This document shows positions 9,228 to 9,258 of a stretch of DNA of 64,000 nucleotides, in pieces. Each line of letters begins with the position of its first letter. Within the stretch, counting starts at the first letter, position 1. The stretch is from the NCBI GenBank assembly GCA_944345705.1, contig CALVML010000003.1:1981-65980 (forward strand). Direction: 5' to 3'. A program made the position numbers and the translations under genes. The notes under the pieces are model-generated. The model saw only the letters and a program-made list of their open reading frames with translations, ran no database searches and was not told the origin of the DNA. Origin of the DNA: an uncultured Clostridia bacterium. GTDB taxonomy: Bacteria > Bacillota > Clostridia > Christensenellales > UBA1242.

Positions 9228-9258
9228 TTGACATGCGGGGGGGGGTATTTGGTATAAT
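9228..9258 (+). promoter_or_regulatory. Promoter with a G9 homopolymer in the -35/-10 spacer (candidate phase-variable promoter)
   Basis: -35 TTGACA at 9228-9233, a 19-nt spacer containing GGGGGGGGG at 9237-9245, and an extended -10 TGGTATAAT (TATAAT at 9253-9258). A strong RBS AGGAGG lies upstream of the ATG at 9290. Confidence 0.6.

Follow-up and report, generated by a model that had tools for sequence, protein, structure and literature searches.

Does a run of nine guanines placed between the -35 and -10 elements of a promoter set the expression of the gene behind it through changes of its own length, or is it a fixed part of the promoter? The question is raised by a gene for a 966-aa protein in a 64-kb stretch of DNA with a GC content of 33%, referred to as the window in the following. 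The -10 element is separated from the ATG of this gene by 31 nt. A first-pass annotation of the sequence had described a TTGACA hexamer, an extended -10 and a spacer of 19 nt including G9 at 9237-9245, and our reading of the sequence matches this description exactly (Table 1). It had further proposed that the tract acts as a phase switch operated by slippage. The reading that we favor is a more limited one: the promoter is a candidate spacer-length 'volume control' adjusted by slippage of the G tract, rather than a clean ON/OFF switch, and we assign it a probability of roughly 45%.

Table 1. Positions of the promoter, the gene and further features in the 64-kb window; L numbers refer to retrieved contigs.
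Feature	Position	Strand	Remarks
recA	7799-8863		Upstream neighbor of the 966-aa gene
recA intrinsic terminator	8974-9025	+	10-bp outer stem 8974-8983/9011-9020; T run to 9025
AT-rich stretch	9180-9227	+	87.5% A+T; locus-specific, absent at paralogous loci
-35 hexamer TTGACA	9228-9233	+	Sequence read; unchanged in 8 of 8 aligned alleles/loci
Spacer TGC-GGGGGGGGG-TATT-TGG	9234-9252	+	19 nt; first position T, A or G among strains
G9 homopolymer, candidate slippage tract	9237-9245	+	Sole G/C run of at least 6 in the window
Extended -10 TGG TATAAT (TGGTATAAT)	9250-9258	+	TG 9250-9251, TATAAT 9253-9258
Short 5'UTR (predicted)	9259-9289	+	Shared with L012 and L013 alleles, without match in L025, L026 and L027
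Transcription start (predicted)	~9264-9266	+	
RBS AAAGGAGG	9275-9282	+	7 nt separate RBS from ATG at 9290
ORF, 966 aa	9290-12190	+	ATG start; signal/anchor peptide MNNKMKVLICLLIFAFIPLGFILINNQSYVANA, variable N-terminal region, Flg_new repeats, conserved C-terminal domain
Site of 12-nt deletion CTTATAATACGG	~9788-9802	+	Codons 167-170
C-terminal domain	11390-12187	+	~255 aa
mutS and mutL	15839-20441	+	Both intact
Large ORF, 1196 aa	47096-50686	-	No Pfam match at E ≤ 1e-5
Large ORF, 2042 aa	57763-63891	-	No Pfam match at E ≤ 1e-5

The gene is located between recA and a gene for PBP1. Since recA ends in a strong intrinsic terminator (hairpin 8974-9020 followed by T6, -21.9 kcal/mol, z = -4.56), the 966-aa gene needs a promoter of its own. 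Apart from the G9 promoter, promoter-like matches in the intergenic region between recA and the gene are at chance level, and an Rfam search over the window yielded one tRNA only, leaving the intergenic region without riboswitch or leader. A promoter scan that permitted spacers of 16–18 nt only did not call the 19-nt G9 promoter. The element is best explained as the promoter of a gene for a variable surface protein, of the kind read by the housekeeping sigma factor (sigma-A type). The AT-rich stretch directly upstream of the -35 hexamer is possibly UP-element-like. A SigB-type reading of the GGGTAT in the tract was considered by manual reading and rejected: the -35-like ATTTAA is 20 nt off and the motif is missing in one of the alleles (L025, see below).

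Both the tract and the spacer are exceptional for this DNA. From base composition only about 0.01 G runs of nine or more are expected in the 64-kb window. G/C runs of at least five are depleted (5 counted), and the earlier remark that no other long G/C run is present holds throughout the window. In a set of about 116 kb consisting of the window and seven related loci, which is partly redundant as some of the seven are alleles of one locus, G/C runs of at least seven were found solely as these promoter tracts. Perfect TTGACA-N15-21-TATAAT pairs occur three times in the window, with a 19-nt spacer in the G9 promoter only. All other extended -10 promoters in the window with at least five of six matches to the -35 consensus have a spacer of 17 nt, which thus is the norm of the organism and makes the G9 promoter an outlier.

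The protein had been described as a secreted repeat protein of the Listeria-Bacteroides/GLUG kind. The first half of this description was borne out by the signal peptide and by four Flg_new stretches (Listeria-Bacteroides / InlB B-repeat type, Pfam, E = 1e-28), but the GLUG assignment was not, as the C-terminal 266 aa gave no Pfam match to GLUG (PF07581) even at E ≤ 5. At the N-terminus, KVLIC precedes a long hydrophobic segment that leads to VANA, and no lipobox of the form L-x-[GAS]-C is present, so the members of the family are not lipoproteins. Homologues form a small family found in metagenome assemblies only. In the family alignment the C-terminal domain is almost invariant (e.g. IYGQNAGIIAG and AYPMPKAFMWYPYPEL), the repeat regions are mosaic and the N-terminal regions are unrelated. 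The C-terminal domain has no Pfam match. Its AF2 model reached a pLDDT of 58 and was matched best in the PDB by the beta-helix 3n6z, a 'putative IgA1 protease' of Bacteroides ovatus (E = 0.02). Lower-ranking matches were beta-helix adhesins and lyases. With a pLDDT of 58 we regard these fold matches as suggestive: the domain may be beta-helix-like, at low confidence, and a surface adhesin-like role of the family is plausible. The signal/anchor peptide, the Flg_new repeats, the mosaic paralogues and the low-confidence beta-helix-like model point to a surface location of the 966-aa protein.

The family appears to be restricted to one GTDB species. Within GTDB it was found in that species only, in the MAG 'uncultured Clostridia bacterium BRZ_B__bin17' (CALVNK01), with two copies at contig ends. 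A search for RecA homologues gave roughly 25 variants at 93–98% identity (P0133-P0155) and turned up no relative with a name. Protein-guided scans with the C-terminal domain returned only promoterless copies cut by contig ends (L010 and L011 in one GTDB MAG, L014 from JGI).

To compare the promoters, core promoters were extracted from the retrieved contigs encoding the same or related proteins; all tract lengths given here are those of assembly consensus sequences. At the locus recA-X-PBP1 (L001-L009 and L015-L023, 16 samples) the tract is G9 and the spacer 19 nt. The same was found at feoB-X-hrcA in contig L012 and at rpmE-X-prmC in contig L027 and three similar places. Contig L013, with recA upstream and hrcA downstream, shows GGT followed by G8 and a spacer of 18 nt. 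Two further alleles at feoB-X-hrcA carry an interrupted, non-slippery tract: L026 has GGGGAGGGG and a spacer of 19 nt, and the gene that follows is intact and encodes 1130 aa, whereas L025 has GGGGGAAGG with a spacer of 18 nt and CATAAT as -10 in front of an intact ORF.

A core promoter of 38 nt, including G9 and the 19-nt spacer, is therefore present upstream of mosaic paralogues in three chromosomal contexts. Judging from the near-identical housekeeping flanks, all three paralogues probably reside in one genome. Upstream of the core the sequence is unrelated among the three loci, and the 5'UTR of L027 is unrelated as well. Homology between loci starts exactly at the -35 hexamer and in the case of L027 stops about 7 nt past the -10. 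Given these limits, core promoter and tract behave as a conserved module. Between the recA-locus and feoB-locus copies the entire cassette of promoter, 5'UTR and signal peptide is identical. Strains whose feoB-X-hrcA flanks are 92–97% identical carry very different alleles of the gene (P0013, P0086, P0044; L012, L025, L026, L011, L013): L012 has the cassette as in the window, L025 and L026 have other 5'UTRs and signal peptides. The alleles also differ in their N-termini and in repeat content, and their protein alignment is strongly mosaic. These differences indicate allele replacement at feoB-X-hrcA, with the promoter core and the conserved C-terminal domain as its limits.

A scan of JGI metagenomes for the exact cassette TATTTGGTATAATAAAAGTGTCAAAG gave no match. 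Scanning IMG/VR for GGGGGTATTTGGTATAAT returned two contigs, one unrelated viral element of 43% GC with TTGACA-N18-TATAAT upstream of a tRNA; since this number of matches is near chance for an 18-mer, the scan is uninformative. In these contigs (L028 219-236, minus strand; L029 8549-8566, plus strand) the 18-nt spacer contains G5 and ends in GGGGGTATTTGG, and the promoter, which is presumably constitutive, is located directly 5' of the tRNA gene.

We then considered how far the length of the tract varies. The first-pass annotation had taken invariance across deep read coverage and among strains as evidence against a switch, and the tract indeed proved nearly invariant in the consensus sequences: G9 was found in 18 of 19 pure-tract observations, each a consensus per sample and locus and together covering at least 17 samples, the only exception being the G8 of L013 at 2.9x coverage. 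At least 12 of the G9 samples carry one near-clonal strain, with the same majority length across hosts. As contigs of the AGC haplotype are at least 99.9% identical to each other, the G9 observations are less independent than their count suggests. At the recA locus the base directly 3' of the -35 is T, A or G, and in the 364 nt preceding the -35 the two main haplotypes diverge by 4%; at this divergence, nine unchanged Gs are not significant on their own (0.96^9 ~0.7). In the single G8 contig (ENA BRZ_MB NODE_22938) the 3' end of recA and an intergenic sequence of the recA type precede the hrcA-locus gene, and hrcA lies downstream. It may represent a genuine rearrangement or a mis-join across the shared promoter/signal-peptide cassette. 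In a single case a SPAdes contig (L017) starts directly 3' of the G tract (ATTTGGTATAAT...), which is ambiguous: the assembly graph may have broken because the tract is heterogeneous, or coverage may simply have been low. Taken together the consensus data lean against frequent switching at the population level.

The interrupted alleles bear on a further part of the original proposal, namely that 19 nt is an aberrant distance and that loss of Gs would restore the optimum. This argument is weakened by L026 and L025. Here interrupted tracts with spacers of 19 and 18 nt precede intact ORFs, so the long spacer agrees with a functional promoter and a pure tract is not required. Moreover, as the interrupted alleles keep 18–19 nt, this length is the norm of the family and not a mis-set state.

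These alleles also bring into play the alternative that we take most seriously, although we consider it less likely than a volume control. It assumes a fixed architecture in which the G-rich block together with the 18–19-nt spacer serves as a throttle or as an operator for a family-specific regulator, slippage having no role. It accounts for a G-rich block whose position is kept in every allele, interrupted ones included, for the invariance of G9 over many samples, for the presence of mutS and mutL, and for -35, TG and -10 counted as invariant (though the -10 of L025 is CATAAT). An operator is, however, not apparent in the spacer, which lacks dyad symmetry or repeats, and a regulator gene adjoins none of the three loci. 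A G8 variant exists, a run of nine Gs is established as a slippage hotspot, and a change of 1 nt in spacer length normally alters promoter strength, all of which speak against a fixed architecture.

The second alternative is a neutral relic, i.e. a G-rich spacer that arose by chance and was copied among the paralogues by duplication or gene conversion, so that the copies are young and the tract has a role in spacing only. Identical cassettes at the recA and feoB loci and the near-clonality of most contigs would be expected in this case, and by extrapolation from the window about 0.4 G/C runs of nine or more would occur by chance in a 2-Mb genome. Simple copying does not readily explain why the core alone was kept while both flanks differ, with homology beginning at the -35 and ending in L027 about 7 nt after the -10, nor why G/C runs are otherwise depleted, and we consider a relic unlikely. 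An activator-dependent promoter of the MerR type, where a protein untwists the DNA to realign -35 and -10, was rejected as highly improbable: a 19-nt spacer between consensus hexamers is the hallmark of MerR-family promoters, but 9234-9252 contains no inverted repeat or palindrome, the neighboring genes (recA/PBP1, feoB/hrcA, rpmE/prmC) include no merR-like regulator, and allelic promoters with 18 nt exist. A compensation of the 2 extra bp by the helical twist of the G tract itself was also discarded, since by our own estimate it would provide no more than about 10–20 of the approximately 69 degrees needed.

Evidence on how the genes are inactivated comes from two of the loci. In a near-clonal lineage from 10 samples (L015-L024) the gene carries the 12-nt in-frame deletion listed in Table 1, which is the sole difference from the intact strains L005 and L007. 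It generates a TGA at codon 167, so that a stub of 166 aa and a separate ORF of 773 aa take the place of the full gene. G9 is still present in the promoter. In the rpmE-X-prmC paralogue (P0017, L027 2760-2840) the signal-peptide ORF MVKYEKNSFQIFLFSICILLLSLFIVSNF stops at a TGA directly after T5 and the mature protein follows in the next frame. Removal of one T would restore the frame, and the same protein was found on 4 contigs. Either the paralogue is genuinely frameshifted, or the coding region contains a second slippage site. As these irreversible null alleles go back to a deletion that introduces a stop and to a frameshift, and not to the tract, they suggest that the tract has no efficient OFF state. 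Segregating null alleles, mosaicism, multiple copies, allele replacement and variable N-terminal parts combined with a conserved C-terminal domain would be expected if selection on a surface antigen fluctuates. Mismatch repair is present with mutS and mutL, which limits the rate of homopolymer slippage.

The proposed volume control by tract length would work as follows. The core module would consist of TTGACA, a 3-nt linker, G9, TATTTGG and TATAAT plus about 7 nt, placed ahead of several mosaic paralogues. With G9 and a 19-nt spacer the perfect -35 would be badly placed and transcription would proceed mostly via the extended -10. An extended -10 lowers the dependence of sigma-70 promoters on -35 spacing, so the promoter is unlikely to be switched off completely at 19 nt; G9 would rather be the modal state with throttled, low-to-moderate expression. 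Replication slippage could generate minorities of G8 or G7 cells, in which a spacer of 18 or 17 nt would allow the -35 and the AT-rich upstream region to be engaged and expression to rise, whereas in G10 cells expression would fall. Each paralogue would thereby be expressed heterogeneously across the population and independently of the others. We infer both the effect of tract length on expression and the slippage within populations. What is left of the original phase-switch proposal is thus an anatomy like that of porA and tp0126 (see below), the G9 core at three loci and one G8 variant, set against G9 in nearly all consensus sequences.

An extension of the volume control to a combinatorial system can be put forward tentatively. 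At least three dispersed, recombining genes of the beta-helix/Flg_new type would share the portable 38-nt module, and its G9 would slip cell by cell, in a manner similar to the Vlp or tpr systems. In Mycoplasma hyorhinis each vlp gene has a poly-A tract in its promoter spacer, and the genes form a clustered multigene family encoding repetitive surface proteins. The family described here resembles Vlp in having a shared 5' cassette of homopolymer promoter and signal peptide, variable repeats and the potential for combinatorial expression. It differs in that the tract consists of G instead of A, a lipobox is missing and the genes lie scattered among housekeeping genes instead of in a cluster.

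The closest known arrangements are porA of Neisseria meningitidis and tp0126 of Treponema pallidum, which likewise have a G homopolymer of about 9–11 nt in the promoter spacer of a gene for a surface or outer-membrane protein (PMC7864442). In porA and tp0126 the length of the spacer sets the level of transcription, with an optimum of 17 nt for tp0126 (PMC7864442); for the present promoter such an effect is predicted. Other differences are that the promoter belongs to Gram-positive-type Clostridia, that both hexamers are consensus and accompanied by an extended -10, and that the modal spacer of 19 nt is beyond the optimum. The tpr genes of T. pallidum offer a second parallel, as paralogous putative surface proteins each have a poly-G promoter. 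tprE, tprG and tprJ are permissive solely at G8 or fewer, and in tprL G9 is the majority in every strain, accompanied by minorities of G7 to G11 and by length-dependent promoter activity (PMC7864442). The G9 majority of tprL matches the G9 consensus found here, and its minorities demonstrate that phase variation is compatible with a constant consensus. The tract of tprL, however, overlaps the -10 and does not affect spacing. Moreover, Treponema is GC-rich and has many G tracts, whereas in the present DNA with 33% GC the tracts are unique to the family.

In Clostridia, surface and phenotypic heterogeneity is known to arise from the invertible promoters of Clostridioides difficile (cwpV, flagella, pdcB/pdcC, cmrRST; PMC11868660). 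Those rely on site-specific inversion; the G9 promoter has no flanking inverted repeats. Switches based on a tract in the promoter spacer are an already known kind. New here is the presence of the same 38-nt G9 core at three loci.

Should the tract turn out to be stable, the locus would serve as a caution that switch-like anatomy alone does not prove a switch. In either case the module provides a concrete target for mining read-level heterogeneity in metagenomes. Multi-locus phase variation mediated by repeats has been described almost only from pathogens, and it has been asked whether this reflects biology or a bias of the databases (PMC11868660). If slippage of the G tract does tune these promoters, the family would represent a 'phasome' of simple sequence repeats spread over several loci, in an uncultured Clostridia lineage that has been recovered from metagenomes only and is not known to be pathogenic. 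Known phase variation in Clostridia operates by DNA inversion (PMC11868660), so the mechanism would be extended to a new clade and a new lifestyle.
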